A stretch of DNA of 64,000 nt, taken from positions 98,126-162,125 of the forward strand of contig CALOBL010000006.1 in NCBI GenBank assembly GCA_942491655.1. The letters run 5' to 3'. Positions 1-46,688 of this stretch are shown one piece after another; positions within the stretch are counted from its first letter, which is position 1, and each line of letters starts with the position of its first letter. The notes beneath the pieces were generated by a model, which did not search any database, had not been told where the DNA came from, and saw only the letters and a program-made list of their open reading frames with translations. The stretch comes from Candidatus Cloacimonadaceae bacterium. Lineage in GTDB: Bacteria > Cloacimonadota > Cloacimonadia > Cloacimonadales > TCS61. Position numbers and translations under genes: made by a program.

Positions 1-1321
1 CAATGGGCAATGTAACAATAAATGCATCGATCTCGCGTAATGATACTTTCCGCAATCCCTCTACAATGTTTTTTACCGGCACAATATTTATTTGAGGATG
101 ATCGTGACTGAAGAATTCATACCATACATAACCTGAAACAATACCGACATCTTTACCATAGAGTTTTCTGGTATTATTTAGTTCATGATTTTCTTTTGTG
201 GTAATTATAACTCCGGGAAAAACCAGATGAGGTTCCGAAAAAAGCATATATTCTGCTCGACCTGGAGTCTGGGCAGCAGCAGGTAACAGATCAATTTCCC
301 TGTTTTCAGCTTTCTTAAGAACTTCATCCCAGTTCTGGCATTGAACAACTTCAAAATTCACATTTAAGGCTTTTTCTATGAGCTCCATGAATTCTGCAGT
401 AATACCAAGGTATTGACCATCTTCATCAAACCATTCGATGGGTGGGAATTGGGGATCAGGTGCGATTCGGATAACCTTATGTTCAGCTAACCAGGCAGCT
501 TCTTCTGCGGTCAGCTGAGTTCGGGTCCATGACTGAAAATCATTAGCTGTAAAACCATACCATTTATTATAAAGAGCGAGTTTTTCCTCTTCACTAATTG
601 AAGCGAGGGCTTTATTCAGTATCACTACCAATTCCGGCCAATCTTTTCGAATGGAATAGAGAAGATCCATTTTGTATTGTTCATCATTAAAAATATGAGC
701 AATTGTTATGTTTTCATGGAACAACTTGCGATATTCGGAGAACATACCAAGCGTAAGGAAGGAAGCATCCGCTTTTTTCCCCCTAACAAGATTGAATGCT
801 TCAATCTCGGTACCTGTTCTTATGATCTGAACATTTTCCAGAGACGCCAGAAGTTTATCAAGCCAGGCATTGCCTTTGATGCTGGCTATTTTTTTTCCAT
901 GGAGATCTTCTTCAGACCTTATTTTATCGGCCTGGTCGGGAGTTGTGACCAGAGCGTAGTATTCAATTAAATAGGGTTCAGTGAAACGGAAGAACTCCCG
1001 TCTTTCATCATTTGCCGCAGATTCGGCTAATCCATCTAATTCGTGGTTTTTAGCCATTTCAACAATTTCATTCCACTTGCCCGGAACGATCTCAATTTTT
1101 GTTCCCGCGATTTCATTGATCATTGTGATAAGATCAATATCATAGCCCTTATGTTGGCCGTTTTCTGCGGGAAAAATGAAAGGAGCCCAAGACTCACCAA
1201 TGCCAAGCCGGATCACCGGATGCTGTTCCAGCCAGGAGATCTCGTCCGGTGTAAGTTCAAACGCCATGAGCGCACTGCAAATTAGCAGTAAAGCAATTAG
1301 CATAAATCTGCGTAATTGCAT
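1..1321 (-). CDS. Sensor protein, N-terminal fragment: signal peptide plus two tandem periplasmic solute-binding (SBP family 3 / Venus-flytrap) domains, BvgS-like input; the rest lies beyond the window start
   Basis: Absent from the ORF track because it runs off the edge. Manual minus-strand translation from ATG 1321-1319 gives MQLRRFMLIALLLICSALMAFELTPDEISWLEQHPVIRLGIGESWAPFIF... The frame stays open to nt 2 (...VEGLRKVSLREIDAFIVTLPI). A second SBP-like repeat starts near LTAEEAAWLAEHKVIRIAPDPQFPPIEW. Confidence 0.7.
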   Translation of the reverse strand, partial: MQLRRFMLIALLLICSALMAFELTPDEISWLEQHPVIRLGIGESWAPFIFPAENGQHKGYDIDLITMINEIAGTKIEIVPGKWNEIVEMAKNHELDGLAESAANDERREFFRFTEPYLIEYYALVTTPDQADKIRSEEDLHGKKIASIKGNAWLDKLLASLENVQIIRTGTEIEAFNLVRGKKADASFLTLGMFSEYRKLFHENITIAHIFNDEQYKMDLLYSIRKDWPELVVILNKALASISEEEKLALYNKWYGFTANDFQSWTRTQLTAEEAAWLAEHKVIRIAPDPQFPPIEWFDEDGQYLGITAEFMELIEKALNVNFEVVQCQNWDEVLKKAENREIDLLPAAAQTPGRAEYMLFSEPHLVFPGVIITTKENHELNNTRKLYGKDVGIVSGYVWYEFFSHDHPQINIVPVKNIVEGLRKVSLREIDAFIVTLPI

Positions 1322-1373
1322 GAAGCAACATTTTTTTCCATTCCTTAACATAGGTTACGCCCCTTTCATCAAA

Positions 1374-3443
1374 TTACAATATAGGCAGGGTTATAGTAAA
1401 AACTGTTCCCGTTGGATTATTATCTGAAATTGTTATCCTGCCATTATAACGTTCAATGGTTTTTTTCACTATATACAATCCCAACCCGGTGTTGCCTGTT
1501 TTTCCCAGGGTGAACTCTTTCTGGAAAACCTTGGTTTTCATTTCATCTGGAATACCCTTCCCATTGTCTATAATACTGATGGAGCAGTAATCATCTGAAC
1601 CATCTAGTCTTATTATGATCTTTGTTGCTTCAGCATGACGAATTGCATTACTGATAAGGTTGTCCATAACAGACAAGAAAGCGCTGTCTGCTTTTATCTG
1701 GCAGGAACCCACAATTTCAATGGGGAAGTTATAGTTAGATATAATTGAATCAGCTATTTTTTTCACATCAGTTTCTACCAGTTCTTTTTCGCTGACGATA
1801 GTTTTAAAAAGTTCACGCATGCGTCTAATAAGATCAGTTGCTTTTGTGACATGATTTTCTAATTCGTTTACAAATTCCATGTTTCCCGATTTGCGGAATA
1901 ATCTAATGGCACTGCTAACGACACTGAGACTGTTTAAAACATCGTGCCAAAGTATACTGTTAATCACGTTTAATTGTTCTTCTTTTTCGCTCAGGATCTG
2001 TTCAATGTTCTTTCTTTCGGAAATATCTTTGATGAAACCTTCCAGGGCAACAATTTTGTCGTGCCTTCCCTTAACGGCTTCACCTTTTTCCCAGACCCAT
2101 TTAACGGTTTTATCTTTAGAGATTATTCGATATTCAAGTTCATAAAAAGTTTGCTTGTCTAAGGCTTCCTGAACAGTATTTTTTACCATCTGTCGATCAT
2201 CGGGGTGAACTAACTGAAAATAAGAGATTTTATTATTGTCGATCAGTTCTTCTGCGGTATAGCCACTAATTTTTTTTATTCCGTTACTAAGATATTTCAT
2301 GTTCCACTTATCATCATTATCACATCGATAAGCAGCCCCCGGGAGATTATGCATAAGGGTTGAGACCTTTCTTTCGCTTTCTTTAAGGTTATTATAGCTG
2401 CCGATAAGTTGCTTTCTCTGATCCTGAACAACTTGATAATTTCTGGCATTGCTAATAATCAGACCGCAAATATCGATAAGGAATAAACTGAGATTAAGGT
2501 AGTGCTGTTTGTATTCTGGAAATGCCAGATCCTCAATTTTTACTGCCCCCAGAACATTCCCTTTGGTTTTAATCTGTAAGAGAAAGCCCTGCCCGGAATC
2601 CGACCATTTGTAAGGATTGTTTAGATTTGAGAGCTCAGACAACACTTTCTTATCTTTTGATTCTTTGCCGGATTTGGAAACCAGCTGGAAAGGAATACCA
2701 TCTTTAAAGTTAAGATAATATAATGTTTGCGGGGCAAAAAGCATATCCATTATGAGGATTATATTATTAATGATCTCATTTTCACTAAGACTGTGTGATA
2801 GTTTACCGATCATGTCCAGAGCCATGGCATATTCCGAAAGTTGCTGGTTTTTCTTTTGTAGTTCAGTGTTTTTTTGAATTCTGTCTTGCTGGAAAAGGTA
2901 ACTTTCCAGGTTCAATTTTAAAACATCTAAGCCGACAGGAACAGATCTTACTTCCTTCTGCAGAAACTTACCTAATTCTTTAAGTTTTAGATCTGCCGAA
3001 GGGTAAACCTCAGTGTCAAGGAGCAGTAAATGATTGCATGATTCTTGGAAAAAATCTTTGGCTGTTGATTGGTTGAATCCCCATGTTTTCAGGTTTTGTT
3101 CCCAACTTTCCAGCCAACCGGGAGTAATTAGATAGGCTCCGGATAAGATGAAATGATCGATAATAGTTTTATTAAGCAGCAATTCAAAACAATTTTCCTG
3201 GCGGAAAAGTATTACATTATCGTCGAAATCTTTAAGCTTATCAAGGCAAACACCTCCAATAATAACATGAGTAATATCAGGTTCGCCATTACTATCCAGA
3301 TCCAGGTTTTGGGTGGTAAGCGGGGGTTTGCCGCAATAGGAAGGAAAGGTTCTTACTTCTATGTCTGCCAGTTTTGAAGTCTCAACCACGCTACGAACTT
3401 CAGCTTCCATATTTTTGCAAACATGAAGAGTAATCTTATTCAT
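1374..3443 (-). CDS. Soluble sensor histidine kinase: DUF1638-like N-terminal domain, GAF-like region, PAS, dimerisation/H-box, HATPase_c
   Basis: 689-aa ORF. HATPase_c boxes are present (N-box DNLISNAIRHA, G1 IIDNGKGIP, G2 GNTGLGLYIVKKTIE). Candidate H-box SILWHDVLNSL. One PAS ends in IKDISERKN. The N-terminal ~190 aa (MNKITLHVCKN...YLITPGWLESWEQNL...) are recognised by eye as DUF1638-like. No TM helix seen. Confidence 0.85.
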   Translation of the reverse strand: MNKITLHVCKNMEAEVRSVVETSKLADIEVRTFPSYCGKPPLTTQNLDLDSNGEPDITHVIIGGVCLDKLKDFDDNVILFRQENCFELLLNKTIIDHFILSGAYLITPGWLESWEQNLKTWGFNQSTAKDFFQESCNHLLLLDTEVYPSADLKLKELGKFLQKEVRSVPVGLDVLKLNLESYLFQQDRIQKNTELQKKNQQLSEYAMALDMIGKLSHSLSENEIINNIILIMDMLFAPQTLYYLNFKDGIPFQLVSKSGKESKDKKVLSELSNLNNPYKWSDSGQGFLLQIKTKGNVLGAVKIEDLAFPEYKQHYLNLSLFLIDICGLIISNARNYQVVQDQRKQLIGSYNNLKESERKVSTLMHNLPGAAYRCDNDDKWNMKYLSNGIKKISGYTAEELIDNNKISYFQLVHPDDRQMVKNTVQEALDKQTFYELEYRIISKDKTVKWVWEKGEAVKGRHDKIVALEGFIKDISERKNIEQILSEKEEQLNVINSILWHDVLNSLSVVSSAIRLFRKSGNMEFVNELENHVTKATDLIRRMRELFKTIVSEKELVETDVKKIADSIISNYNFPIEIVGSCQIKADSAFLSVMDNLISNAIRHAEATKIIIRLDGSDDYCSISIIDNGKGIPDEMKTKVFQKEFTLGKTGNTGLGLYIVKKTIERYNGRITISDNNPTGTVFTITLPIL

Positions 3444-3444
3444 T

Positions 3445-4488
3445 TCAGATCCTTATGGGATAATAACCGAATTCATGTACTGTTTTGGAAATTGTCAGCA
3501 AGGTTTCATCACTAACCTGCCAGGGTATTTCACCGTGATTGTCGGACAGGATGAATCCTCCTCCGGGAGCACCTTTTTTAATAGCACTAAGGACATTATC
3601 CCTGGTCTCCTCTTCGGACCAACGCCGCATCTCAATTCCATTCAGGTTACCGATAATGGTAAGTTTATGATGGAAGGCTTTTTTCAGGTCCAGGATGTCT
3701 TCAGTTGAACTGACACCAATAATTGCCGTACCCGTAGTTGAGAGTTCTTCAGCAATAGGAAGACTGATGCCGGAAGCAAGATGGGTAGCGGTTGGACCTT
3801 TGATCTGACTGATCGTGTTTTTGGCGATCTGGTAGCCGGTTTTCAGGTAAAGTTCTTTGGGAATAATGGTGGAAGAAGAGACGGGGTCGAAGTAACAGAT
3901 AGCCGTGGCGCCAGCTTCAAGCTGAGCATTGGCCCATTCTATACAGAAGCGGGTATTTATTTCCATTAATTTTCGGAAATATGGTTCGTTTTCATAGATC
4001 AGGTTAAGGTATTTATCGAAACCCATCTGCATTACAGGAAGTGAGAAGGGTGACATGACAACCCCGATGATAGGGACAGAATCCTTAACCTCCTTGAACA
4101 ACAACTCAGTCGTCTTCAATACTCTGTTAAGGACAACAGATTCACGAACTGAGGGGAAATGCATTTTATCTATATCAGACAATTTTGAAATGACCGGGTC
4201 ACCTGAATTAGGGGGTCCTTCATTATTATAAATCACATCTCCGCCCATCACTTCGATTTCAACAGGGGCGTAATAGAATGTGTAATAACAATCGTGTTTA
4301 TATCTTTCTCGCATTTCCAACTGAGCTTCTGCAACAGCTTCCGGGTAGCGGAAGTATTCCTTTATAGACATATTTTTGAATTTAGCGCCATGCAGGCTGA
4401 GCAGCAGAAAGAAAGGTACTCTGTCTGCCTCATTGAATCCCAGAGTTGTGAGAACTCTTTGCATTGAATTCATTATTTCTTTACTCAT
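3445..4488 (-). CDS. URO-D family (MtaA/MtbA/CmuA-like) corrinoid-dependent methyltransferase
   Basis: 347-aa ORF with overall URO-D/methylcobamide methyltransferase resemblance (RVPFFLL, GATAICYFDP, GGGFILSDNHGEIP). The start overlaps the upstream stop (ATGA at 4485-4488). The stop lies 1 nt from the kinase start. Confidence 0.8.
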   Translation of the reverse strand: MSKEIMNSMQRVLTTLGFNEADRVPFFLLLSLHGAKFKNMSIKEYFRYPEAVAEAQLEMRERYKHDCYYTFYYAPVEIEVMGGDVIYNNEGPPNSGDPVISKLSDIDKMHFPSVRESVVLNRVLKTTELLFKEVKDSVPIIGVVMSPFSLPVMQMGFDKYLNLIYENEPYFRKLMEINTRFCIEWANAQLEAGATAICYFDPVSSSTIIPKELYLKTGYQIAKNTISQIKGPTATHLASGISLPIAEELSTTGTAIIGVSSTEDILDLKKAFHHKLTIIGNLNGIEMRRWSEEETRDNVLSAIKKGAPGGGFILSDNHGEIPWQVSDETLLTISKTVHEFGYYPIRI

Positions 4489-5111
4489 TCGGTCACCTCC
4501 ATAAGAGAATTGATCAAGGTGAGGGTTGCTTTGGCATCTGCCGCGGTAGCATCCGCCCCAACTTCTTCTGCCAGAAGCTTATCGAAGCGGAAGGGTGCTC
4601 CGCCAACGATAATTTTCACAGGATTACCTGACTGTTTTAATTTTTCAGTCAGTTTTTTTATCTGGAGGGCTGAAGGCAACATGAGAGTTGATATCAAAAT
4701 TATTTTAATAGATTCAGAATTTATCCTTTCTAACAGTTCATCAACAGTTACCCTGCCGAAATCGAGTAGAGAGTAGCCGCTTGCTCTAAGGAGAGAATAG
4801 ACAATCCTTTTTCCCAGCAGATGGAAATCATCCAGTACCGCAATAGCCATTCTGGGTTGATTAATCCGCCTGGGGTCTGAATATGGCAGGATCTCCTCAA
4901 CGATTTCTTCCACTATTCTTCCGCTCATATAGACCTGAGATAAAGCAACGGTACCTTTTTCCCAGTCTTCTCCGATCTTCTCTAAGGCGGGAACAATAAT
5001 ACTTTCTATTACAGCGAAGGGATCATTTTCATTCAGGTTGGATCTGGCTATTTCCCGGGCGGCGAGTCTGTCGGTTTCCAGCAATGCTGTAATGAAATTA
5101 TTTACTTTCAT
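4485..5111 (-). CDS. Cobalamin-binding corrinoid protein (B12-binding_2 cap plus B12-binding Rossmann domain, MtaC/MtbC-like)
   Basis: His-on B12 signature is present: DxHxxG (DDFHLLG), SxL (STL), GG (IIVGGAPF). The longest ORF starts at 5195. A GGAGG 5 nt upstream of the ATG at 5111 (MKVNNFITALL...) makes 5111 the more likely start. Confidence 0.85.
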   Translation of the reverse strand: MKVNNFITALLETDRLAAREIARSNLNENDPFAVIESIIVPALEKIGEDWEKGTVALSQVYMSGRIVEEIVEEILPYSDPRRINQPRMAIAVLDDFHLLGKRIVYSLLRASGYSLLDFGRVTVDELLERINSESIKIILISTLMLPSALQIKKLTEKLKQSGNPVKIIVGGAPFRFDKLLAEEVGADATAADAKATLTLINSLMEVTE

Positions 5112-5187
5112 TTGACCCTCCATTCTATATTTTCTGCATTCTGAAGTCCATCCGGCAGCTGCCGGATGAACTCCAGTCTGCTTAACA

Positions 5188-7284
5188 TTAATCATGATCT
5201 TTTAATTTTGCTTCCAGTTCAGCCAATTTATTTCTCAATTCTTTAATGCGGAATTCTCTTCCGGCAAAAAGTTTATTATATTTCTTCAGATCCATATTTT
5301 TCTTCTCCAGTTCCGAGGTTCTTTCTTTAACAAGTTCTTCCAAATGATCCCTGTACTGGATAAGTTCGAGCTGTGCTTTTTTCTTTTGTGTGATGTCGTT
5401 TGTAAGTATTACAACCCGATCAACCTGATTATTTTCATTCATAATAGCATAGAAATATTGAGATATCCATTCTGCTTTAAATTTATGAATCTCTTTAAGT
5501 TTTAATTCGGGGATTTCGTAACTTCCACCCTGAGTGTAAACTCGTTTGATTTCATTTATACTTGAGCCCAGGTACTCATCTTTCTGATTGAACAGCAGCT
5601 TTTCTCTTGGTTTCTTATAAGCGGCAATTTCAGCATTGGTGAGTCCCCAGAGTTTCTGCCAGGCTTTGTTGCAGAGCAATAAGGTGCCAGTTGTGTCTCG
5701 CACAGAAATGCCGATGGGTGAGCCTTCGATAACAGTTCTATTCAGCAATTCACTTCTTTTAATCATTTTTTCTGTTATTTTCTGATCGGTAATATCTCTG
5801 AAGCTCCATACTCTGCCAACCGGAACACCATCTAAGGATTGAGGTTTTGAATATCTTTCAATAATGCGTCCGTCTTTAAAATGTAGTATATCAAAACTTT
5901 CTGCATTCGGATTATGATATAGTTCTTGAACTTTGGCGATAAAACCGGCGGGATTGACCAATTGCCCTATAATATGTTTGATGGCAAATCCCATATTTTC
6001 CGGAGAAACCAGATCTTTTTTCTTACCCTCAGGAAGAATATCACTGGAAATTCCCCAAAGCTCGATAAATTTATCATTATAATCAACGATTCTACCTTCA
6101 AGATCAACAACTAAAATACTGTCTGCAGTAGCTTCAAGAGTGGCTTGCAATCGAGACATGGTACTGATGAGATTTTGTTCAGCTTTCTTGCTTTCATCAA
6201 TATCCATATGAATACCTACAGCACGAAGCGGATGTCCATTCTCGTCTCTTTCAACTATCTGTCCCCAGCTAAGTATCCATTTATAGGAACCATCCTTACA
6301 CTTGAGTCTTTGTTCGCTCTGGAAATATTTATCTTTTTGATTTTTCCCTAGACCGCGCAGGTATAATATTGTATTCTTATCTTCAGGATGTATAAGATTC
6401 AGCCAGGCTTTGTTTGTATCTGGAATTTCTCCCGGTTTGTAACCTAACATAGTCGACCAGCGTTCTGAACGATATACAATACCCGTTATGAAATCAATAT
6501 CCCAAAGACCAAGCTTAGCTCCATTCATTGCCATTTCCAGTCTTTGTCTGCTCTCTGAAAGTGCGGTTCGGGCTTTTTCTTTTTCAGTAATATCGCGCCA
6601 GACAGTATAGATAATGTCTTTTCCTTTTACCTTGATATGAGTTAGGGAAACATCTACCCAGAGCTCATTTCCTTCAGCGTTAAGGTGCAGCCATTCAAAA
6701 CGGGCATAGCTTTTTTTAGTGGCTTTTTTTAATACCGTTTTTGCTTTTTCGATGGAAAGTGTGCCATCTGATTGATATTCTGGAGAAATCTCCCAGGGGA
6801 ATTTTCCGATAATGTCATCTTTGGACTTGTAGTTCATGAATTTAAGGGTGGCAGCATTGCAGTCGATGAATTTCATGTTTTCTATAAGAAGGTTCGGATC
6901 GGTTGATTTTTCGAACAAACCTCTATACCGATTCTCACTTTCTTCCAGCTGCATTCTGCTGATCTTGGTTTCTGTAACATCTCTAACAACAGCCAGAACA
7001 AAACTTCTATCTTCCAGATCTATACGATTTAACAGCACGGTTGCATAGAAGTTTTCACCATCGCTCCTTTGATGTATCCATTCAAAGAAGTTTGAGCCTT
7101 TTTCAAGTGCGGTATTCATCATTTCCCTGGCTTTTTCTTCTGAATTTCTACCATCTGGTTGTCTGGGAGGAGAAAGTTTCCAGGGTGCCATTTTCAGGAA
7201 TTCTTCTCTATTAACAAGTTGGAAAAGTTCAATTACAGCCTTATTTGCTGTAGCAAATTTCCAATCTGGTCCCTCCAGTGTCAT
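5188..7284 (-). CDS. PAS-only sensor protein (5 PAS domains) with conserved C-terminal coiled-coil tail, no recognisable output domain
   Basis: 698 aa. Five PAS repeats end in VRDVTETK, WRDITEKEK, HMDIDESKK, FRDITDQK and TNDITQKKK. They are followed by RDHLEELVKERTSELEKKNMDLKKYNKLFAGREFRIKELRNKLAELEAKL. No HATPase, GGDEF, HD or HTH segment seen. Confidence 0.8.
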   Translation of the reverse strand: MTLEGPDWKFATANKAVIELFQLVNREEFLKMAPWKLSPPRQPDGRNSEEKAREMMNTALEKGSNFFEWIHQRSDGENFYATVLLNRIDLEDRSFVLAVVRDVTETKISRMQLEESENRYRGLFEKSTDPNLLIENMKFIDCNAATLKFMNYKSKDDIIGKFPWEISPEYQSDGTLSIEKAKTVLKKATKKSYARFEWLHLNAEGNELWVDVSLTHIKVKGKDIIYTVWRDITEKEKARTALSESRQRLEMAMNGAKLGLWDIDFITGIVYRSERWSTMLGYKPGEIPDTNKAWLNLIHPEDKNTILYLRGLGKNQKDKYFQSEQRLKCKDGSYKWILSWGQIVERDENGHPLRAVGIHMDIDESKKAEQNLISTMSRLQATLEATADSILVVDLEGRIVDYNDKFIELWGISSDILPEGKKKDLVSPENMGFAIKHIIGQLVNPAGFIAKVQELYHNPNAESFDILHFKDGRIIERYSKPQSLDGVPVGRVWSFRDITDQKITEKMIKRSELLNRTVIEGSPIGISVRDTTGTLLLCNKAWQKLWGLTNAEIAAYKKPREKLLFNQKDEYLGSSINEIKRVYTQGGSYEIPELKLKEIHKFKAEWISQYFYAIMNENNQVDRVVILTNDITQKKKAQLELIQYRDHLEELVKERTSELEKKNMDLKKYNKLFAGREFRIKELRNKLAELEAKLKDHD

Positions 7285-7335
7285 GTAACCATCCTTGGAA
7301 GATTCGAAGATTTCACGATACAGGATCTCGCTATC

Positions 7336-10300
7336 TCATAATTCATGTTCGATCATTTTTTGAGCCGTGATATCTTCAAAGACAGTAGCGAAGTAACCTC
7401 TGGCAGGCGAATAAGCGCTTACAGAGAACCATTTATTCAGATTTTTTCTATAACTTTCAAAGTGAACCGATTCACCGGTTAAAGCAACATTCCCATAAAC
7501 TCCGATCCAGTCTGCGGGATCTTTTTCAATTCCCTGGAAAACTGAAGTAACTTTTTTCCCAACAGCTCTGTCAGCTCTGATTCCAGCCATCTCTTCAAAG
7601 GCTTTATTGATTTCCAGGAACTCATAATCGACCGGTTTCCCGGAATCATCCAGAATGATTTTATGGTAGGCAAAACCACTGGACATGTTATCGAACAGGC
7701 TTTGCAGCTTATCTTTATTTTCAATTAATTCCTGCTGCACTTTTTTGCTTTTAGTAATATCTCTGAAGATACAGTGCGTTCTTGTGAAGTTATCATTTTC
7801 ATCTCTACCAATTTTGGCGGTATAATCAGCAATAATATAAGATCCTGATTTTTGCCGTAAGTGAAATTCAATGTTTCTGATAATTTCTCTGGATTGAATA
7901 TTCTGGGGGAATAATTTTCTGAAGATCTCTTTTTGATTGGGATGCAGGAAATCTCCGAACCATTTACCCAACACTTCTTCTCGTTTATATCCAAGAATAT
8001 TTAACCAGGCTTCATTTATATCTAGAAAACAACCGTTAATGTCAAGAGACTGATAACCAACAGGGGCATGTTCAAAATAGAGCTTATATTTGGCTTCACT
8101 TGCTATGAGAGCATTTTCTGCTCGTTTTCTTTCAGTAATATCCCTGGCTATACCATAATAATAAATTTTATCTGCTATCTTATATTTGCTGGAACTTATC
8201 TCGATGGGAATTAAAGTTTTATCTTTTCTCTGGTGTGTAGTCTCAAAAATTAATTGTTTTTTAAAGGGGACATCGCTCCAGAATTTATTAAACTCGGAAA
8301 TAGGATAATTGGGGTCGACTTTGTCAATGGGTGCACCGATAATCTCTTCTTTTGAATAGCCTAATAGTTGGCAGGCAGATTTGTTCGTGTCAATTATAAA
8401 TCCTGTTTCATCCATCAAATAAATTGGATCAGAAGCTGAGTCTACAAGGTTGCGATATCTTGCTTCGCTACTTATTAAGGTTCTTTCAATTTTCTTTCTT
8501 TCACTTATGTCAATATGGGTACCCACTAATCTTATGGCAGTTCCTGATTTGTCAAAATAAGCATTTGCCCGGGAAAGTATATCTACCCAGTGACCATCCT
8601 TGTGTTTCATTTTGAATTCAATTTCAAAGTTATCTCTTTGTTTATTTGTTAATTCCTTCAACATTTTCAAGGCTAGTTTAACATCTTCCGGAGCAGTAAG
8701 CTTTTCCCAGACAGAAAATTCATTGGGCAGTTCATCGTATTTGTAGCCCAGCATGCTTTTCCAGCCGGGGGAATAGTAGATCTCGCTGGTTATAAGGTTC
8801 CAGTCGAAAATGCCGTCACTGGTGGACTTCATGGCCAGTTCAAAGCGCTCTTTGCTATCTTCAAGATCTTTCTGAATGGATTTTATCTCAGTTACATCTG
8901 TTCCTGAACTAAGTATGGCAATAATCTGACCAGCTTCATTTCTGATGGAAGTATTATGCCATGAAATAGTTTTCACCTTGCCGGTTTTTGTTATGATCTC
9001 CGCTTCATAATGGTCTACAATATTCAATTGACCCGATAATGCCTTATGAAATGCTTCTTTTCTTTCATCGATCAGATTCAGGGGAATAGATGTTTCAAAC
9101 CAGTTTTTACCGATCAGTTCATCTTTATCGTCATATCCCAGAAGTTCAAGTCCGGCTTGATTTATCAGAATGATCTCACCATTTGTATTAATCGATAGAA
9201 TGATGTTTCCTGCCAATTCAAGATATTGCTCAGCAGTTTCTTTAGCTCTGATAATTTCTGCTTCCGCTTTTTTCATTTCTGTAATATCCTGTGAGGTACC
9301 GAAAAGTTGGTTGATCTCACCATTTTTTTCAATTACAGGAAAGCCCTGAGTTTGAATATAGTGATATGAATTATCATTTTCATGCCAAATACGAGTTATA
9401 ATATTATAAGGAGTTCCAGCAATACAATCTTTAACCGCTTTGTCGAAAATTTCCCAATCATCCGGATGCCAGGGTTTTTTATGTCCTTCATAGGTTGGCG
9501 CACCATTTTCCTTTTTGAAACCTGTGATCTCAAACATATGGTCAGACCACTTCGGTTGTTGAGCCTCTATATCATAACGCCAATAACCTAGCTTTGCCAT
9601 CTTTTGGGCTGCCTCTAAAGTGAAGTTCAGTTTTTCAAGTTCTGATTGATTCTCTTTCATTTCTGTGATATCTGTTGAAATTATTTGAACTCCAATAAGT
9701 TCATCTTTTTCATTGAAGATCTTGTTATATTTAGAGTTGAACCATTTTGTGCCAGCAGGCAGTTCAACCTTGTCCTCAAAATCGAGAAAATCATCTGCTT
9801 TAGCTGTAGCTTTAATGCGATTATGGTAGAGTTTCCCAAATTCATTACCATAAAGGTCGTAGATCGATTTCCCGATAAAATCTTCTGGTTTGCCGTTCAT
9901 TAGATCAGCGGCCATTTTATTGAAGAGGATAACAGTTCCCTCCAGGTCATAATAGCCGATCCCCGCTACCACGTTTTCCAGAAGGGTTCTGTAGCACTGT
10001 TCCTTGGCAGCAAGTTCATTTTCAGTTTTTATCCGGTCTGTTACATCATTCATGGCAACAGCGAACTGACCCTGGCAGGGGCAATAGGCTTTCACACCCC
10101 AGTATTTATCTAAATATTCAGAATGATCGACAAAACTGATAGATTCACCTGTGAGGGCTACTTTGCCGTATACATCTATCCATTTCTGTTCCAGGTTGGG
10201 AATAATCTCCAATCCACGTTTACCGATGACATCTTCTCTGTTCAATCCGGTTTGCAACTCCCAGGTGGGACTTACATCCAGGAAGGTAAAATCGACAGGT

Positions 10301-11556
10301 TTTCCACTATCATCCAAAATAATTTCATGCAAAGCTATACCGGAGTTGATATTGTTAAAGAGAGATCTATATTTCTTTTCACTTTCTTTAATTTTCAGAT
10401 GAGAATTTACTCTTTCAGAAATATCTCTAATCACGCCTATGGTTCCATGCTGGTCTCCCTGAAAGTATAGTTTGCCAGACACTTCTCCGTGAAAAGTAGT
10501 TCCATCTTTATGTCTCATGAGAAGTTCCAGATTTTTGGATGTCTGTCCAGATGAGATTGCTGACTTGAATTTCTGCATTGCTTTCGAAATATTCTCTTCT
10601 GCTAGAAATTCAACAAAGGATCGGCCTTCCATCTCTTCAGGCTTATAGCCAAATATGTTCTCTGATGCTGGAGAAATGTAGGTAATAATTCCTTTTTCAT
10701 CGGTAAGATAAATCATGTTGCTCATTTGCTCTGTAATTGAGCGGAATTTATTCTCGCTTTCAATTAATGCAGACTCGTAATGTTTTGCCTCAGTGATATC
10801 TCTGCCTATAATACTTACTCCGGTTACTTCGGTATTTTCATTAAATATCGGGTTGTAGCGAAATTCGAAATAAAAATCCCGATCTCTCTGGAAAGAGGTT
10901 TTAATGGTTTCAATGAATTTATTCCCCGCTAATGCCTTATCATAGAATTTTTTCCATTTGCGGTATAATTCTTCAGGGATCAGATCTTTACTGATCACTA
11001 AATCACCGGGTTTAATTATTCGATTAAAAACAGGTTTCATAAAATTGAGAAAATTGGAATTGGCTGTTAATAGTTTGTAATCTTCATCAATAGACCAGAT
11101 GAGGTCGCTGGAATTTTCGATAAGGGAGATAAGGTTGTAATGCTGCTGAAGGATCTCCTTTTCTGCCAGTTTATTTTCTGTAATATCATCAAATATTACA
11201 CAGAATCTTTCCTGATAGTCCCAGGGGCGGTAAACGATGCAATGGTATAATTTTTTAGTGGGATCATGATAATTATCGAATTCAAGAGTTTCTCCGGTAA
11301 TTGCGACATGACCGTATTTATCTACCCAGCTTTGTTCTGTGCCAGGCCAGACCTCGTGCACGGTTTTGCCCTTAACGTCTTCATTCTTTACTCCGGTTAT
11401 TTTCTCGTAGGCATCGTTGATAAAGACAAAACGATAACTGACGAATTTCCCGCTTTCATCGAATACAGAATCGAATAGAACGAATGCGTTGAACATTGTT
11501 TTAAGGAGCCAGTTTGTTTCATCGATATGCAGCAGATGATCTTCTTCTTTTTTCAT
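7336..11556 (-). CDS. Giant PAS-only sensor protein (~11 PAS domains), no output domain
   Basis: 1406 aa. Eleven PAS boundary motifs: DDITENK, GRDITEAK, IRDISER, MNDVTDR, STDITEMK, SQDITEMKK, GTDVTEIK, HIDISERKK, ARDITERKR, FRDITKSKK, FEDITAQK. Three repeats share the W(I/V)DxYGxVAxTGE subtype. Confidence 0.8.
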   Translation of the reverse strand: MKKEEDHLLHIDETNWLLKTMFNAFVLFDSVFDESGKFVSYRFVFINDAYEKITGVKNEDVKGKTVHEVWPGTEQSWVDKYGHVAITGETLEFDNYHDPTKKLYHCIVYRPWDYQERFCVIFDDITENKLAEKEILQQHYNLISLIENSSDLIWSIDEDYKLLTANSNFLNFMKPVFNRIIKPGDLVISKDLIPEELYRKWKKFYDKALAGNKFIETIKTSFQRDRDFYFEFRYNPIFNENTEVTGVSIIGRDITEAKHYESALIESENKFRSITEQMSNMIYLTDEKGIITYISPASENIFGYKPEEMEGRSFVEFLAEENISKAMQKFKSAISSGQTSKNLELLMRHKDGTTFHGEVSGKLYFQGDQHGTIGVIRDISERVNSHLKIKESEKKYRSLFNNINSGIALHEIILDDSGKPVDFTFLDVSPTWELQTGLNREDVIGKRGLEIIPNLEQKWIDVYGKVALTGESISFVDHSEYLDKYWGVKAYCPCQGQFAVAMNDVTDRIKTENELAAKEQCYRTLLENVVAGIGYYDLEGTVILFNKMAADLMNGKPEDFIGKSIYDLYGNEFGKLYHNRIKATAKADDFLDFEDKVELPAGTKWFNSKYNKIFNEKDELIGVQIISTDITEMKENQSELEKLNFTLEAAQKMAKLGYWRYDIEAQQPKWSDHMFEITGFKKENGAPTYEGHKKPWHPDDWEIFDKAVKDCIAGTPYNIITRIWHENDNSYHYIQTQGFPVIEKNGEINQLFGTSQDITEMKKAEAEIIRAKETAEQYLELAGNIILSINTNGEIILINQAGLELLGYDDKDELIGKNWFETSIPLNLIDERKEAFHKALSGQLNIVDHYEAEIITKTGKVKTISWHNTSIRNEAGQIIAILSSGTDVTEIKSIQKDLEDSKERFELAMKSTSDGIFDWNLITSEIYYSPGWKSMLGYKYDELPNEFSVWEKLTAPEDVKLALKMLKELTNKQRDNFEIEFKMKHKDGHWVDILSRANAYFDKSGTAIRLVGTHIDISERKKIERTLISSEARYRNLVDSASDPIYLMDETGFIIDTNKSACQLLGYSKEEIIGAPIDKVDPNYPISEFNKFWSDVPFKKQLIFETTHQRKDKTLIPIEISSSKYKIADKIYYYGIARDITERKRAENALIASEAKYKLYFEHAPVGYQSLDINGCFLDINEAWLNILGYKREEVLGKWFGDFLHPNQKEIFRKLFPQNIQSREIIRNIEFHLRQKSGSYIIADYTAKIGRDENDNFTRTHCIFRDITKSKKVQQELIENKDKLQSLFDNMSSGFAYHKIILDDSGKPVDYEFLEINKAFEEMAGIRADRAVGKKVTSVFQGIEKDPADWIGVYGNVALTGESVHFESYRKNLNKWFSVSAYSPARGYFATVFEDITAQKMIEHEL

Positions 11557-11787
11557 AGATCCTTCTTTAAAAAATTATATTCAAATAACTTTAATAAATA
11601 CTCCAGTTTTTATTACGATTTACAATTTTTCAAAACTCCAGCTCAGAAGATCCGACCGTATCGGAGAGGCTGGACTTGAGCCGAGAGATTTACAAATTTC
11701 GCATCTTAACCCCAGCCTTCAGCTGAGGTTTTAACCTGTGAAATACGAAGTGAATTTCACTGGGTCCGGTCTGATAAACTTTTTTCT

Positions 11788-11878
11788 GTCCCCGCTCCAC
11801 ACTCACTTTTTGCCCATTGGGGGCAAACGGTCGCTGCAGAGCAGGTCCAGCCAGCTTAACCTCGATCTCAATCTCAAA
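11788..11878 (-). repeat. Repeat family A, copy 3 (inverted orientation)
   Basis: The reverse complement gagattgagatcgaggttaagctggctggacctgctctgcagcgaccgtttgcccccaatgggcaaaaagtgagtgtggagcgggg aligns with copies at 36465 and 51461. The central hairpin tttgccc/gggcaaa is conserved. Confidence 0.7.
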
Positions 11879-11988
11879 CATTTTGTATTCTGAACCCCAG
11901 CCTTCAGCTGAGGTACAGTCTGCCCATTTGGAACCATTCGCAAGGTTTTTTACTCTATCTGTTTCCTAGTTTCTTTGCGTCCTGGTGG

Positions 11989-13713
11989 CTAGCTTCCGTC
12001 TTCATCATTTGCTTCTTCACCCAGCTTTATCTTCAGCTCTTTAATTTTATCTTTTAGTTCTTTAATACGGAATTCCCGACCGATAAAAAGTTTGTTATAG
12101 TGTTCCAGCTCGGCATTTTTTTCTTCCAGTTCCCGGGTTCTTTCTTTAACCAGTTTTTCCAGATGATCACGGTGTTTTTTTAATTCTCTTTCGGCTTCTT
12201 TCTGGGCAGTTACATCCATAACGGTAGAGACCATTACATTTTGCCTTAATAAGGGAATATTGACAGCATTGATGTATTTATGGGTTCCATCTTTATGAAT
12301 TATTTCCAGATTTTCCCAATGCATTCTGTTGGGATCACCGCTCATGATATCTGCCAGAACCTTTTTCTGAAGTTTTTCACGATAATCCTGATCGGGATAG
12401 ACTTTTTTAAAGAACTCACTTATGTTTTTCAATTCTTCTGCTGGCCAGCCATAGATCTCTTCAAATTTACGGTTAATATAGGTGGCTTCACCTTTATCTA
12501 TTTCATTGAGAGCCAAGCCAATAGGCAGGCTATCCATAACTGTTTGAATGAATTCATTTTTATTTTTGATCTCTTCCAGATATTTTTTTTGTGATGTAAC
12601 ATCAATTCCAGAACTTAAGAGATGTTTGATTACCCCATCATCATCTCGCATATAGGAATTATACCAGGAGATGGTTTTTAACTGACCAGATTTAGTAACT
12701 ACATCATTATCAAAGTGTTCAACACCATCCATTTCCCCGGTTATAACCTTGTTGAATACATCTTTGACCTGAGGAACGACCTCTTTCGGGATGCAAGTAT
12801 CAAACCAGTTTTTACCAACCAGTTCTTCACGGGTATAGCCAAGGACATCCTCAGCTTTTTTATTAGTCAGAAGAACTTCACCATTTTGATTAAGAGATAC
12901 AAAAATACTTCCTGCCATCTGCAGATAAAGTTCTGCGATCTCGCGTGCAGCTTCGACCTTTTTTTCGGCGATTATCTGATCTGTGAAATCTCGAGCAATT
13001 GCGTAAGTTTCTCCTCGTTCAACAATGGGCCGGGAAACCCAATTCAGGTACCTGTATGAGCCATTTTTACAACGGTAGCGGTTTGTAAAATTTATTACAT
13101 AAATATCTTTTTTTAATTTATTTTCAATAACATCAATGGTAGGCTGAACATCATCGGGGTGTACAAATTCAAGGAAAGGTTTACCTAAAAGTTCTGCTTC
13201 AGTATATCCTAATGTTTTAGTAAAGGAAGGGCTTATCTTCAAGAAAGTGGCTGTATTGATGTCGGCAACACAGAGAAGGTCGGGAGAGACATTCCAGATT
13301 GTCTCAATTTCCTCCTGAGCTTCTTTCCTTTCGGTAACATCTCTTATGGTACAAATTATCCCATTAAATTTTCCAACCTGGATCTGGGGAATAAGCCAGC
13401 CATTCTGCCAGGTATTACGCCCGGCAGGGGTTTTTACGGCAACTTCATACCAGACGGTCTTGAGTGTTTTTTTTGCCTGAAGATAGGATTTACCGAACTG
13501 CCCAATTGTTTCTTTGGGGAAGTCTTTAAGGACATTATTTCCAATGATCAAGTTCCTGGGTACACCGGCGATCAACTCCATGGTTCTATTACAGAAAAAT
13601 ATCACGTCATCTTTATCGGTTACCCAGATACCGTCCTGAACCCCTTCAATGATATTTTCATATAAATTTTTAACATCAAATTGCAGACTATCATTATCAT
13701 TTTTTTTGCTCAT
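11989..13713 (-). CDS. PAS-only sensor protein (4 PAS domains) with the same C-terminal coiled-coil tail as 5188..7284
   Basis: 574 aa. PAS boundaries are IRDVTERKE, ARDFTDQ, GIDVTSQKK and VMDVTAQKE. Tail: RDHLEKLVKERTRELEEKNAELEHYNKLFIGREFRIKELKDKIKELKIKL. Confidence 0.8.
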   Translation of the reverse strand: MSKKNDNDSLQFDVKNLYENIIEGVQDGIWVTDKDDVIFFCNRTMELIAGVPRNLIIGNNVLKDFPKETIGQFGKSYLQAKKTLKTVWYEVAVKTPAGRNTWQNGWLIPQIQVGKFNGIICTIRDVTERKEAQEEIETIWNVSPDLLCVADINTATFLKISPSFTKTLGYTEAELLGKPFLEFVHPDDVQPTIDVIENKLKKDIYVINFTNRYRCKNGSYRYLNWVSRPIVERGETYAIARDFTDQIIAEKKVEAAREIAELYLQMAGSIFVSLNQNGEVLLTNKKAEDVLGYTREELVGKNWFDTCIPKEVVPQVKDVFNKVITGEMDGVEHFDNDVVTKSGQLKTISWYNSYMRDDDGVIKHLLSSGIDVTSQKKYLEEIKNKNEFIQTVMDSLPIGLALNEIDKGEATYINRKFEEIYGWPAEELKNISEFFKKVYPDQDYREKLQKKVLADIMSGDPNRMHWENLEIIHKDGTHKYINAVNIPLLRQNVMVSTVMDVTAQKEAERELKKHRDHLEKLVKERTRELEEKNAELEHYNKLFIGREFRIKELKDKIKELKIKLGEEANDEDGS

Positions 13714-13767
13714 GAAAAAACTCCCTCAAAATTTAAAGTTTCAGAGTTTAGTAGCATACGTAACAAA

Positions 13768-15303
13768 TTATCTCTCAGCCAGTTCTTCAAAATTTATGAT
13801 GATTTTTTCCAGATCATTTTTTTCGTCGAATATCGGTGTGGCATTAACTTTAATCCAGTTGAGACAATCTTTGTCCGGGTGTTGAACGCCAAGGATGAGA
13901 TTTTCAATGGGGTTCAGATTTTTTATAACCTGATTAACCGGGTATTTTTCCGGAGGCATAGTTGTACCATCGGGATTAACAAAGTTCCAGGATTGATTTA
14001 TCGCCTTTTTTCCGGCCATTTGTGCTGCCGTAAGTCCAAGGATTTCTGAGGCTCTGGGATTACTGAGGATGATGGAGGTATCAGCAGCATGAACAACGAC
14101 ACCAATAAGCATATTATCTAATGTAGCTTTGTAGTTTTCTTCGCTTTTTTGCAGCCTTCTTTCAAAATTTTTCCGTTCGGTAATATCTTCCGCGACCTTA
14201 AGATAATTTAATATTTTCCCATTGTTATCTTTAATGGAAGTTATAGAGGCATCTTCCCAGAAGAGTTCACCATTTTTCTTTTTGTTCAGGAATTCTCCGC
14301 GCCATTCTCTACCGGAAGTTATCACTTCCCAGAGTTCCTCAAATAATTCTTGAGGCAGCAGGCGGGAATTAAGAATTCTGGGATTTTTACCTTTTACTTC
14401 ATCAAAACCATAACCAGTGAGTTCAGAGAATTTTTTATTGGCATATTCTATATTGCCTTCAATATCCGTAATTACGATAGAAGAAGGACTTTGTTCTACA
14501 GCAGCAGACAGCTTTCTGATATTTTCAAGATTAATTCTTTTTTCGGTTATATCGGTTAACAACAGCATATGTGTGTTGGGTAGAAAATGTGCAGAACCTA
14601 CCACACGCACTATTTTGAGTTTCCCCTTTTTATCTTTAATTTTAAACACTTCGTCCATCTTACCTTCACTGGTGAAATCAAACCAGAGCTGCAAGCAATC
14701 GTCAGTAGAAAGGTCGGAAACGATATCAGGGAGAGAAAGAGTGAGGATTTCTTCCCGGGATATCTCCAGCAGTTTAAGGGCAGCCAGATTGGCTTCGGTA
14801 AAGTTGGCTGTACGGTCGGCGATAAGAATTGCTTCACCGGAATTTTCAAACATGGATTCAAACATCAATTCAGTTTTGGATAGATCAGTTCTTAATTTCT
14901 TAAGTTGATCCAAATTAGTAATGGTTACCAGTAGTAAGTCGGAATTATTTTTATTGTCAAAGATCAGTTCAGTTATTCTGGATGCTTGAAGCCGCACATT
15001 TATGTTTCTATTATTTTTGCCAAGAAGCCTTAATTCAATAAATTCTCCATCAGGGTTATTAAAAAAGTCTTGATAGCGTTCCAGGAAAAATTCCCGATCG
15101 CTGATGTGTATGAACTCATTTATATTTTTATCCATGAAATCGATCGGATCGTTTTTTAAAAGTGAAGAAAAAGGCTTATTTACCTTGATTATGTTGCCAG
15201 ACTCATTTAGAATTATTAAAGAAACAGAAATCTTGTCAAAGAGAGTAAAAAAAATATTCTCTAAACTAATCTGATTGTTAGAATTATTTTTCCTGGCCGG
15301 CAT
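13768..15303 (-). CDS. PAS-only sensor protein (~4 PAS domains)
   Basis: 511 aa. PAS boundaries include LLTDITEKR and AEDITERKN. A GGAG RBS lies upstream (ctcaaGGAGatgttATG on the minus strand). Confidence 0.75.
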   Translation of the reverse strand: MPARKNNSNNQISLENIFFTLFDKISVSLIILNESGNIIKVNKPFSSLLKNDPIDFMDKNINEFIHISDREFFLERYQDFFNNPDGEFIELRLLGKNNRNINVRLQASRITELIFDNKNNSDLLLVTITNLDQLKKLRTDLSKTELMFESMFENSGEAILIADRTANFTEANLAALKLLEISREEILTLSLPDIVSDLSTDDCLQLWFDFTSEGKMDEVFKIKDKKGKLKIVRVVGSAHFLPNTHMLLLTDITEKRINLENIRKLSAAVEQSPSSIVITDIEGNIEYANKKFSELTGYGFDEVKGKNPRILNSRLLPQELFEELWEVITSGREWRGEFLNKKKNGELFWEDASITSIKDNNGKILNYLKVAEDITERKNFERRLQKSEENYKATLDNMLIGVVVHAADTSIILSNPRASEILGLTAAQMAGKKAINQSWNFVNPDGTTMPPEKYPVNQVIKNLNPIENLILGVQHPDKDCLNWIKVNATPIFDEKNDLEKIIINFEELAER

Positions 15304-23647: not shown

Positions 23648-25163
23648 TCAATCAATCCAATCCTTTGCTCGAGCTACTGCTTTTTTCCAGTTTCTGTATT
23701 CCCGGGAGCGGTCATTTTCATTCATTCTTGGTGTCCAGCGTTGATCTGCTTTCCAGATAGATTTAAGCGAAGCAACATCTTTCCAGAATCCAACTGCCAG
23801 TCCTGCTGCAAAGGCAGCTCCCAGAGCAGTTGTCTCGGTTATAACCGGTTTAATTACATCTACATTAAGAATATCAGCCTGAAACTGCATTAAAAGGTTG
23901 TTCGCAGTCATCCCGCCGTCCACTTTCAGGCTATTCAAAGGTAACCCGGAATCTTTATTAATTGCCTCAAAAACTTCCCGGGTCTGAAAAGCTGTAGCCT
24001 CAAGGACAGCCCTGGAAAGATGTTTCTTATTGATATAATGAGTTAAACCAATAATTGTTCCACGGGCACTACTATTCCAATGAGGTGCAAATAAACCGGA
24101 AAAGGCCGGTACAAAATAGACACCGCCATTGTCTTTGACTGAAGCGGCAAGTGCCTCGATCTCTTCTGAGCTTTTTATAATGTCAAAATTATCCCGCAGC
24201 CACTGCACCAGTGATCCGGCAATCGCAATTGAACCCTCCAGGGCATAACAGGCAGGTTCTTCGCCAATTTTGTAACCAACAGTTGTAAGTAATCCATTTT
24301 GGGATGTTATGGTTTTATTCCCGGTGTTCATTAACAGGAAACAACCTGTACCATAGGTGTTTTTGGCATCACCTGCATGGAAGCAGTTCTGCCCGAAAAG
24401 AGCTGCCTGCTGATCACCCAGGTCACCGCAAACCGGGATCTCCAATTTCAGAAAATCATCTTTTCTGGTAACACCATAGGTTTTGCTGTCTGAAGATGCT
24501 CTGATCTCTGGTAAAATCTCTGCAGGAATATGCATGATTTTCAACAGTTCAGGATCCCAGCTTAAAGATTGAATGTCCATCAGCAGGGTTCGGCTGGCAT
24601 TGGTTACATCGGTAATATGGGATCCACCTTTTCTGCCGCCTGTAAGATTCCAGATAAGCCAGCTGTCAATTGTTCCGAAAAGCAGTTCACCATTTGCGGC
24701 GGCCTTGTATAATTCAGGGTTATTATCCAGGATCCATTTGATCTTTGGTCCGGAAAAATAGGTGGCTGGTGGTAGGCCGGTTTTCTTCTGAAAGAACATT
24801 CTGTCGAACTTATTCTCAAGATCCTTGCAGATATCTGTGGTCCTGGTGTCCTGCCAGACAATGGCATTTTGATAAGGAATGACCTGTTTTGGGATTCCAC
24901 AGAACAGTAGTTTCTCTTTGATTTGTTATCCCCAAAGCGGCAATTTCTTTGCCGGGAATATGGTTCTCTTCCAGGACAGCTACAATTAAATTCCGGGTAT
25001 TATTCCAGATCTCCAGGGGATCGTGTTCAACATAACCGGGCTGGGGATAGACCTGTTTGTGTTCGACCTGGTTTGATGCTTTGATCCTGCCTTCCCGATC
25101 AAAGAGAATAAATCTGCTGCTGGTTGTTCCCTGATCGATAGCACCGACGTATTTTTCAGGCAT
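23648..25163 (-). pseudogene. glpK: Glycerol kinase, interrupted by one +1 frameshift (or sequencing indel)
   Basis: ORFs 24816..25163 (MPEKYVGAIDQGTTSSRFILF...[16 protein letters not shown]) and 23648..24799 together give a full GlpK. The missing segment [35 protein letters not shown] reads in a third frame. Removing one nt near 24881 restores [12 protein letters not shown]. Confidence 0.85.
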
Positions 25164-25181: not shown

Positions 25182-25481
25182 TTATTTAAGTTTTCCTGAA
25201 ATTACCGGATTATCTGGATTTACTCTGAATAACAGAGCTGTTTTTCCTATAATGTTGACGATTAGTGAATCTGTTGCTTCTGCCAGTTCCGAGATACATT
25301 CCTTGCGATAAGCTCTGTCCGGATTCTGGATGGATACCTTAACGAGTTCTCTGGCTTCCAGTGCTTCATTCAAACTGACTATCACGTTGTCTGTAACACC
25401 TTTATCACCTACTCGAACGATGACGTCAAAATTCTGTCCGACTGACTTTAGTTTTGCCTTCTGTTTTCCTTTAAGTTCCAT
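25182..25481 (-). CDS. yhbY: YhbY-like CRM-domain RNA-binding protein
   Basis: 99 aa. [44 protein letters not shown]...IGKTALLFR aligns by eye with E. coli YhbY. Confidence 0.8.
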
Positions 25482-45564: not shown

Positions 45565-45618
45565 ATTTGAAATGAAATATTATGTCCAAACAGAATTATT
45601 AGTGAGTGAGATATAAAA

Positions 45619-46686: not shown

Positions 46687-46688
46687 TT

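Follow-up and report, generated by a model that had tools for sequence, protein, structure and literature searches.

How does a protein built of sensory PAS domains pass on what it senses when it carries no recognizable output domain? The question is raised by the first 15,303 nucleotides of a 64,000-nucleotide stretch of contig CALOBL010000006.1 from a Candidatus Cloacimonadaceae bacterium, a stretch that we call the window. An earlier note, made from the sequence alone, described here eight minus-strand open reading frames (ORFs), four of them encoding proteins made of PAS domains only, with a single kinase among the rest. All eight ORFs were recovered in place. Since all credible genes from 1 to 36287 lie on the minus strand, the common orientation of the eight ORFs is no evidence of an operon. 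We found that the region consists of a gene with four PAS domains, a gene with four PAS domains and a C-terminal tail, and a gene with 16 PAS domains and the same kind of tail, broken by one TGA. Beside these multi-PAS genes lie an unrelated three-gene sensory module and then a periplasmic sensor, the orthologue of which has such a tail too. The tail is a widespread, unannotated terminal module, and the array of sensor genes accompanied by a kinase is a recurrent arrangement; we found no description of this arrangement in the literature, and no relevant description of the tail motif strings. The elements of main concern are as follows.

13768 to 15303, minus strand: 511-amino-acid (511-aa) protein consisting of four PAS domains, tail-less and without further domains (ORF, PAS profile, Pfam)
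11989 to 13713, minus strand: 574-aa protein with four PAS domains and a C-terminal tail (ORF, PAS profile)
11992 to 12204, minus strand: C-terminal tail (residues 504-574) of the 574-aa protein, NKLFIGREFRIKELK preceded by an "ERT" signalling helix
5188 to 11556, minus strand: single 2,122-codon frame with 16 PAS domains and a tail, holding one in-frame TGA (profile, homologues)
7336 to 7338, minus strand: the in-frame TGA, in the linker between PAS11 and PAS12 (homologue alignment)
5191 to 5385, minus strand: tail of the 16-PAS gene, residues 2058-2122

We counted PAS domains with an in-house profile seeded from clearly delimited copies. By this profile, the 511-aa and 574-aa proteins have four domains each, the merged frame 5188..11556 has 16 and the kinase has one; domain E-values run from 3e-8 to 1e-32, and copies outside the seed were recovered as well. 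Twenty of the 25 isolated PAS segments matched Pfam PAS_9 at E<=1e-3, and all four PAS ORFs and the kinase match Pfam PAS families. The earlier counts of 4 + 4 + 11 + 5 + 1 = 25 domains (proteins of 511, 574, 1406 and 698 aa and the kinase) therefore hold. The gene model behind them does not, as we found three multi-PAS sensor genes rather than four.

Whole-protein Pfam scans of the four PAS ORFs gave no GGDEF, EAL, HD, HTH, STAS or receiver (REC) domain, and no HisKA or HATPase match. To this extent the description of the proteins as PAS-only and without output stands. It fails for the 574-aa protein and the 16-PAS gene, both of which end in a conserved, non-PAS helical tail of about 65 aa. 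The earlier note had held that a cryptic output domain detected by sensitive profile or structure searches would refute its reading; a cryptic non-PAS module, the tail, was found, and the reading falls in part. The cluster's only truly PAS-only member is the 511-aa protein, with PAS matches at residues 15-129, 145-254, 262-376 and 388-507; no tail or signalling-helix motif was found in any of its frames. Its third PAS domain (14176-14520) is LOV-like, reading GKNPRILNS where LOV domains have GxNCRFLQ, with the photoactive Cys replaced by Pro.

The tails of the two window genes share the consensus [HY]RDHLEELVKERTxELEKKNxxLxxYNKLFxGREFRIKEL and span about 65 residues. The first half is an ERT signalling helix, and the second half is a nearly invariant LFxGREFRIKEL extension. 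In the alignment of tails (A1), twelve columns are invariant, including R26 and T27, with E25 nearly so. At the level of the family, we define the tail as KHREHLEELVKERTxELEEKNxELxxFNxLFxGREFRIKEL, standing after input domains only and ending about 20 residues later; the 574-aa protein and the 16-PAS gene fit this definition, and the 511-aa protein does not. In the 574-aa gene (its protein is identical to entry P0157 of the public protein collection) the tail is the best-conserved part, with 86% nucleotide identity, versus 75% for the PAS parts, to a syntenic contig from a related organism (ENA ERZ25039514 contig_75756, hereafter L001; ~73% nucleotide identity).

The tail has no match in Pfam or NCBIfam, and the tails gave no HisKA or HATPase match in Pfam at E<=10. 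AlphaFold models the tail as a single continuous helix (pLDDT 90.6), one straight helix where a helical hairpin had also been considered. Among solved structures in the PDB, we obtained chance coiled-coil matches only (E>=0.2). We also considered the second half as a degenerate H-box in which His has become Phe, and rejected this: profile comparison aligned the PAS linker only, and no HisKA-type Pfam family matched at E<=10.

To see how far the tail extends beyond the window, a profile built from 15 tails was searched against 1.84 billion representatives. It matched 17,397 of them at E<=1e-3 and 2,480 at E<=1e-10. Of 131 matches examined, the 118 that carry the strict pattern all have the motif 18-32 residues from the C-terminus (118/118); the remaining 13 comprise eight close variants, also terminal, and five with the signalling-helix half only. 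An occurrence of GRELRMxELK-type segments in the interior of kinases was not borne out; the variant seen here (P0183, P0156) is C-terminal too. Species-representative genomes contain the nonapeptide REFRIKEL[KR] 396 times, mainly in metagenome-assembled genomes of Cloacimonadota, Bacteroidales and Prolixibacteraceae, Neomarinimicrobiota, Desulfobacterota and Spirochaetota. We fetched 80 loci, and in all 109 genomic occurrences the motif lies 15-46 codons before the stop. The domains of 107 tail proteins are PAS in 91, REC in 15, GAF in 10, HAMP in 4 and SBP_bac_3 in 3, and their 25 commonest families include no kinase, cyclase (GGDEF), phosphodiesterase (EAL) or DNA-binding (HTH) family. From this terminal position and these input-only partners it follows that the tail stands where an output domain normally would, behind PAS, GAF, REC, HAMP or periplasmic input modules.

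What, then, might such a tail act on? The genes around it offer a candidate. Downstream neighbours lie on the same strand in 72 of 91 cases, often overlapping the tail gene, and 26 of the 91 are themselves tail genes. Where a same-strand, non-tail gene terminates the array, it encodes HisKA and HATPase_c in 18 of 45 cases, with one more HisKA_2 protein; upstream, 7-8 of 36 neighbours are kinases. The kinases directly downstream carry the consensus AExELxKHREHLEELVKERTxEL, as the tails do, and diverge after this common helix into SQxALxYLLEDVNESR, followed by the H-box. The helix signature is present in 15/17 downstream kinases versus 2/64 unrelated PAS kinases (p=2e-12). With a same-locus control, the figures are 13/15 for downstream kinases against 9/32 for other kinases (p=3e-4). 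The full stalk in these kinases (loci L002-L081, e.g. L018, L020, L023, L028 and L030) reads KHREHLEELVKERTxEL..SQxALxYLLEDVNESRxEL..ANKELExFSYS, and its length differs among downstream kinases in steps of seven residues, so that the heptad register is kept.

Within the 64 kb of the window, the signalling-helix signature occurs in the two tails only. In L001, the start of a 4HB_MCP-PAS-HisKA-HATPase gene is overlapped by 4 nt by a tail-bearing receptor gene. This receptor is the orthologue of the sensor that begins at 1..1321 of the window (65% nucleotide identity in synteny). It is 742 aa long and consists of two SBP domains, a transmembrane segment, one PAS domain and the tail; its cytoplasmic parts are the PAS domain and the tail only. 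By synteny with L001, the matching kinase of the window probably lies just beyond coordinate 1.

Taking into account the position of the tail and the helix that it shares with the kinases, we propose that the tail proteins are kinase-less sensor subunits whose coiled coil relays the state of the PAS domains to a tail that associates with, and modulates, a kinase sharing the helix. This proposal has, in our judgement, an even chance of being right. The PAS array would bind ligands or read the redox state, and the resulting conformational change would pass down a parallel coiled coil to the tail. The tail would then associate with a histidine kinase carrying the same signalling helix and alter its activity; docking on a kinase is suggested because the genes are adjacent and the helix is common to both. 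The partner would usually be encoded directly downstream, which here means a kinase with a KHREHLEELVKERT-type helix beyond coordinate 1, as in L001, and several sensors would feed one kinase. More tentatively, and at somewhat less than even chance, the ERT-plus-REFRIKEL tail may be an undescribed transmitter module that lets kinase-less sensors, whether PAS arrays, periplasmic receptors or even receiver proteins, enter mixed coiled-coil assemblies with helix-sharing kinases. Cloacimonadota, Bacteroidales and further anaerobes of sediments would then commonly use a two-component sensing that is modular and "split".

Several observations weigh against this proposal. Gene adjacency and the common helix could also stem from duplication of the sensor half of a kinase, that is, from common descent. 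Kinases are only modestly commoner downstream than upstream (17/45 vs 8/36, p=0.15), and neighbour genes were called by a simple ORF rule. Co-evolution of the helix between particular sensors and kinases was looked for and rejected, with 59% identity within loci versus 57% across loci (permutation p=0.08); the common helix is a family signature in these alignments, not a pair-specific code. The matching kinase is not visible in the window, and L001, which places it, is full of frameshifts (its AcrB gene is in four pieces) and was used as local translations only. The 511-aa protein has no tail at all. Finally, the 15 of 107 tail proteins that begin with a receiver domain fit a role downstream of kinases equally well.

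The last point leads to another explanation, in which the tail is an effector acting on a non-kinase target, such as a transcription factor, the polymerase or another coiled-coil protein, and the tail proteins are terminal outputs. A leading receiver is the usual layout of a response regulator, stand-alone receiver genes are frequent neighbours of tail genes (5/45 downstream, 6/36 upstream), and from phylum to phylum the tail's second half hardly varies, as expected of a surface that binds a conserved partner. Even so, we consider this explanation rather improbable: no conserved non-signalling gene emerged from either the downstream (45) or the upstream (36) neighbours, the tail is unlike any DNA-binding or other family, and the explanation does not account for the sharing of the tail's first half specifically with the kinase directly downstream.

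The larger of the two tail genes was formerly taken for two. ORFs 7336..11556 (1406 aa) and 5188..7284 (698 aa) are in the same frame and are set apart by one TGA (7336-7338) and 17 sense codons. The junction translates as HEL-stop-DSEILYREIFESSKDGYM, and in its wider context, DITAQKMIEHEL-stop-DSEILYREIFESSKDGYMTLEG, it is an ordinary PAS linker followed by an N-cap; PAS12 already begins 15 codons ahead of the ATG that opens the 698-aa ORF. The merged frame has 16 PAS matches at a spacing of about 125 aa. L001 reads through the PAS11-PAS12 junction with Gln at the position of the TGA. In the 17 codons from the TGA to the ATG at 7284, the window and L001 differ at 12 nucleotides, of which 9 are synonymous and 3 conservative, indicating that this stretch has been translated in this frame. 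A gap-free alignment of 377 aa (53% identity) carries another homologue, P0281, across the junction; it has Arg where the TGA stands (KLRESELKYR), and a CGA or AGA codon would need one change only to become TGA. Taken together, the comparisons make the two ORFs two parts of one 16-PAS gene. The "11-PAS protein without output" of the earlier note was thus an artefact of the gene model, being the front part of a 16-PAS gene cut by one in-frame TGA. Sixteen PAS domains come near the reported maximum of 19 per protein, found in one cyanobacterial kinase, where the mean is two (PMC10468136).

We infer that the TGA arose recently from CGA or AGA, or reflects a base-calling error, and is not a designed gene boundary. 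Mutation and error are indistinguishable here from sequence alone. Three further window genes have single-base frameshifts, near 24880, 25840 and 43020. These frameshifts split a glycerol kinase gene (glpK), a gene for a macro-domain protein and one for a LamG-domain protein with a type IX secretion system sorting tail (23648-25163, 25471-25975 and 42197-43658). None of the sites is a long homopolymer, and either residual sequence errors or an accumulation of pseudogenes would account for them. Recoding of the TGA, as selenocysteine or otherwise, was considered and rejected: no SECIS-like hairpin lies downstream (folding z=+0.79 vs shuffled), and the homologues have Arg or Gln. Other window genes end in TGA as a normal stop.

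If the TGA were genuine, the locus would yield an 11-PAS protein without a tail and a re-initiated protein with five PAS domains and a tail (ATG 7284), or a mixture of these through UGA read-through. The TGA is, after all, present in the sequence as given. AAGGA lies 9-13 nt upstream of the ATG at 7284, and GGAGG-type sites precede genes in this organism, but this AAGGA merely encodes a conserved K-D-G. Homology to L001 starts exactly at the junction, with different upstream domains in the two genomes; against this, P0281 has the junction from PAS11 to PAS12 unbroken. The coding constraint on the 17 codons and the lack of a recoding structure also argue against a functional stop, and the three other broken genes fit sequence errors or recent decay. 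On balance, a functional TGA is unlikely, though it deserves to be taken seriously.

The arrays differ sharply in domain content between the window and L001. In the large gene, PAS2, 3, 5 and 12-16 are kept in order (47-75% identity), and the last five PAS domains and the tail show 63-75% protein identity, whereas PAS1, 4 and 6-11 have no counterpart. The 574-aa protein shares PAS1 and PAS3 with its L001 orthologue but not PAS2 and PAS4, and L001 lacks any orthologue of the 511-aa protein. The modules formerly reported as shared are real: the GKNWF module is common to the 574-aa and 1406-aa proteins (45% identity), and the W(I/V)DxYG module occurs three times in the 1406-aa protein (35-46% pairwise identity). 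They had been read as signs of local shuffling and duplication, and for duplication this is only partly right: paralogues within one protein are old, as their 35-46% identity indicates, and PAS11 has closer relatives of its type in other genomes (60-68% identity). By these comparisons, what remodels the arrays is that whole domains, taken from old PAS subfamilies, are gained and lost, rather than recent local duplication.

Such instability between relatives, together with a nonsense codon in one PAS gene and other broken genes in the window, could also suggest that the PAS genes are decaying, functionless remnants of multi-PAS histidine kinases. We regard this as highly improbable. A reading frame of 6.4 kb is intact but for one TGA, its C-terminal five PAS domains and tail are conserved in L001 to the extent given above, and the tail stands always at a fixed distance before the stop, in 109/109 genomic cases and in thousands of clusters.

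The single kinase of the window was formerly proposed as the partner of the PAS proteins. The region that holds it had been left largely undescribed, with no mention of the B12-binding corrinoid protein (4485..5195), the URO-D/MtaA-like protein (3445..4488) or the DUF1638 module at the N-terminus of the kinase. The remaining features of the region are as follows.

11557 to 11988, no strand: 432-nt non-coding gap that separates the 574-aa and 16-PAS genes (stops in the gene frame)
5149 to 5168, no strand: perfect 20-nt palindrome CATCCGGCAGCTGCCGGATG (read from the sequence)
4485 to 5111, minus strand: corrinoid (B12-binding) protein (Pfam, homologue alignment)
3445 to 4488, minus strand: URO-D superfamily protein (Pfam)
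1374 to 3443, minus strand: 689-aa histidine kinase (Pfam, homologue alignment, AlphaFold/Foldseek)
1 to 1321, minus strand: start of a periplasmic sensor, running off the window (Pfam, synteny with L001)

The corrinoid protein matches Pfam B12-binding and B12-binding_2 and has the DxHxxG motif in the form DFHLLG. Its mechanical ORF extends to 5195, and its probable start is the ATG at 5111, preceded by a GGAGG; the homologues, of 205-215 aa, begin to align at M29. It has the cap, the Rossmann B12-binding domain and the DxHxxG that mark methyltransferase-type corrinoid proteins, and scores 86 bits against a cut-off of 215 for its nearest NCBIfam family, TIGR02370 (methyltransferase cognate corrinoid protein), too little for a subfamily assignment. 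Membership of the 3445..4488 protein in the URO-D superfamily is established (Pfam, E=1e-55). By sequence it appears nearest to the MtaA/CmuA methylcobamide methyltransferases, below their cut-offs (TIGR01463, 92 bits vs 235; PRK06252, 113 vs 244).

The 689-aa protein is composed, in order, of DUF1638 (~1-190), a long helix, a GAF-like domain, a PAS domain (357-476), a DHp helix with WHDVLN and a CA domain. HATPase_c matches at E=2e-24, and HisKA and HisKA_2 match weakly (E ~0.03-0.05) around WHDVLN. With HATPase_c and a His-bearing DHp helix it is a histidine kinase. Its AlphaFold model (pLDDT 77) shows a DHp hairpin and a CA domain. Foldseek matched the model to PAS-kinase structures; it returned kinase and PAS structures only, and nothing for DUF1638. 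Alignment with homologues in which DUF1638 is fused to a kinase or to GGDEF shows that three cysteines of the module, C9, C37 and C85, are invariant.

These three genes form a unit of their own. The corrinoid, URO-D and DUF1638 genes abut in the same order in 6/6 loci (five homologue loci, within L082-L088, and the window), the output domain of the homologues being a kinase, a hybrid kinase or GGDEF. The window kinase is thus separate from the PAS genes and part of an independent conserved triad. The earlier view of the PAS proteins as accessory input or scaffold for this kinase can appeal to the common strand and to proximity, since about 76 nt separate the 16-PAS gene from the probable start of the corrinoid gene, which opens the kinase operon. 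That spacer, however, holds the strong palindrome between the two units. None of the five homologue loci has a multi-PAS gene upstream, one of them has a GGDEF output, and L001 keeps the PAS genes without the triad, with a 220-aa PAS-tail gene in its place. The kinase also has no ERT signalling helix. We therefore consider this particular pairing very unlikely. In its general form, accessory input for kinases, the idea fared better, given a tail family in tandem arrays with kinases of matching helix downstream.

The DUF1638 kinase more likely monitors the state of its own corrinoid protein. DUF1638 is genetically tied to B12-dependent methyl transfer; B12-dependent methionine synthase requires a DUF1638 protein alongside a RamA-like one (PMC5764234, PMC12478193). 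The triad resembles corrinoid methyltransferase systems (MtaA/MtaC, MtgC) in its DxHxxG protein and MtaA-like URO-D enzyme. It differs from them in that DUF1638 is fused to a kinase (to GGDEF in relatives) and in that no MT1-type methyltransferase or RamA gene adjoins. From its gene content, the triad looks sensory rather than metabolic, and like an undescribed corrinoid-linked sensory system. Response_reg gave no match in the 28 window ORFs scanned (about seven smaller ORFs were left out), so these ORFs do not include the nearby cognate regulator of a classical two-component system.

As for the other features, the palindrome CATCCGGCAGCTGCCGGATG, past the stop codon of the 16-PAS gene and ahead of the corrinoid gene's probable start, extends imperfectly to about 36 nt and could be a hairpin or an operator. 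Within the 432-nt gap, a 26-nt stretch is directly repeated, with one mismatch and 185 nt spacing (11704-11729 and 11889-11914); the counterpart of the gap in L001 is only about 140 nt long. A regulatory RNA or tRNA in the gap was considered and rejected, as no Rfam family matched at the gathering score or at E<=1 and no tRNA was found. ORF 1..1321 had been described as the start of another sensor, which is correct: it has a signal-peptide-like segment and two SBP_bac_3 stretches.

The window has a G+C content of about 40% and also encodes type-IX-secretion cargo proteins, a C25 peptidase and an RND efflux pump. Several of its proteins have their nearest relatives in metagenome-assembled genomes of Cloacimonadota, which makes an uncultured anaerobe of this group the most likely source. 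At 44500-48820 lie four successive plus-strand ORFs of 354-355 aa each, the first encoding a CorA-type Mg2+ transporter; their near-identical lengths suggest tandem paralogues. The lowest G+C of the window (0.32) is found around 44-46 kb.

Sensors that end in a helix are known elsewhere. In short LOV proteins, a PAS-type sensor has as its sole C-terminal element the J-alpha helix, which forms a dimeric coiled coil, and the partners are unknown or act in trans; these proteins have one flavin-binding PAS domain, and their helix is much shorter and lacks the ERT and REFRIKEL motifs. The first half of the tail resembles the S-helix (Anantharaman, Balaji and Aravind 2006, PMC1592074), being a heptad coiled-coil helix of about 40 residues with a central ERT directly after PAS, and also matches the pre-DHp helix of TorS. 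The S-helix nearly always lies between two signalling domains (PMC1592074). In the tail, by contrast, no signalling domain follows; the helix receives a conserved extension of 25-30 residues and then the stop. MopJ of Caulobacter crescentus, a single-domain PAS protein acting on cell-cycle kinase signalling, likewise has no enzymatic or DNA-binding output and works via other signalling proteins (PMC4432633). It has one PAS domain and no ERT/REFRIKEL tail, and the likeness is one of layout, with no sequence relationship claimed. Multi-PAS histidine kinases share the very long tandem PAS arrays (PMC10468136) but end in a kinase core where the proteins described here end in the tail.

Output-less sensor proteins are common in annotations and mostly unexplained. 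Among them, no fewer than 2,480 clusters at 50% identity form a large class with a common terminal helix, and genomic context and sequence tie this helix to a subclass of histidine kinases. One caution that the locus teaches is that an in-frame stop can fake "record" architectures, here an 11-PAS protein without output. The triad beside the PAS genes may couple cobalamin chemistry to signalling. The tail, whose motif is missing from current domain libraries, offers a route to how output-less sensors signal, and if the proposal is true, one kinase would be wirable to a changeable set of separately encoded sensors.

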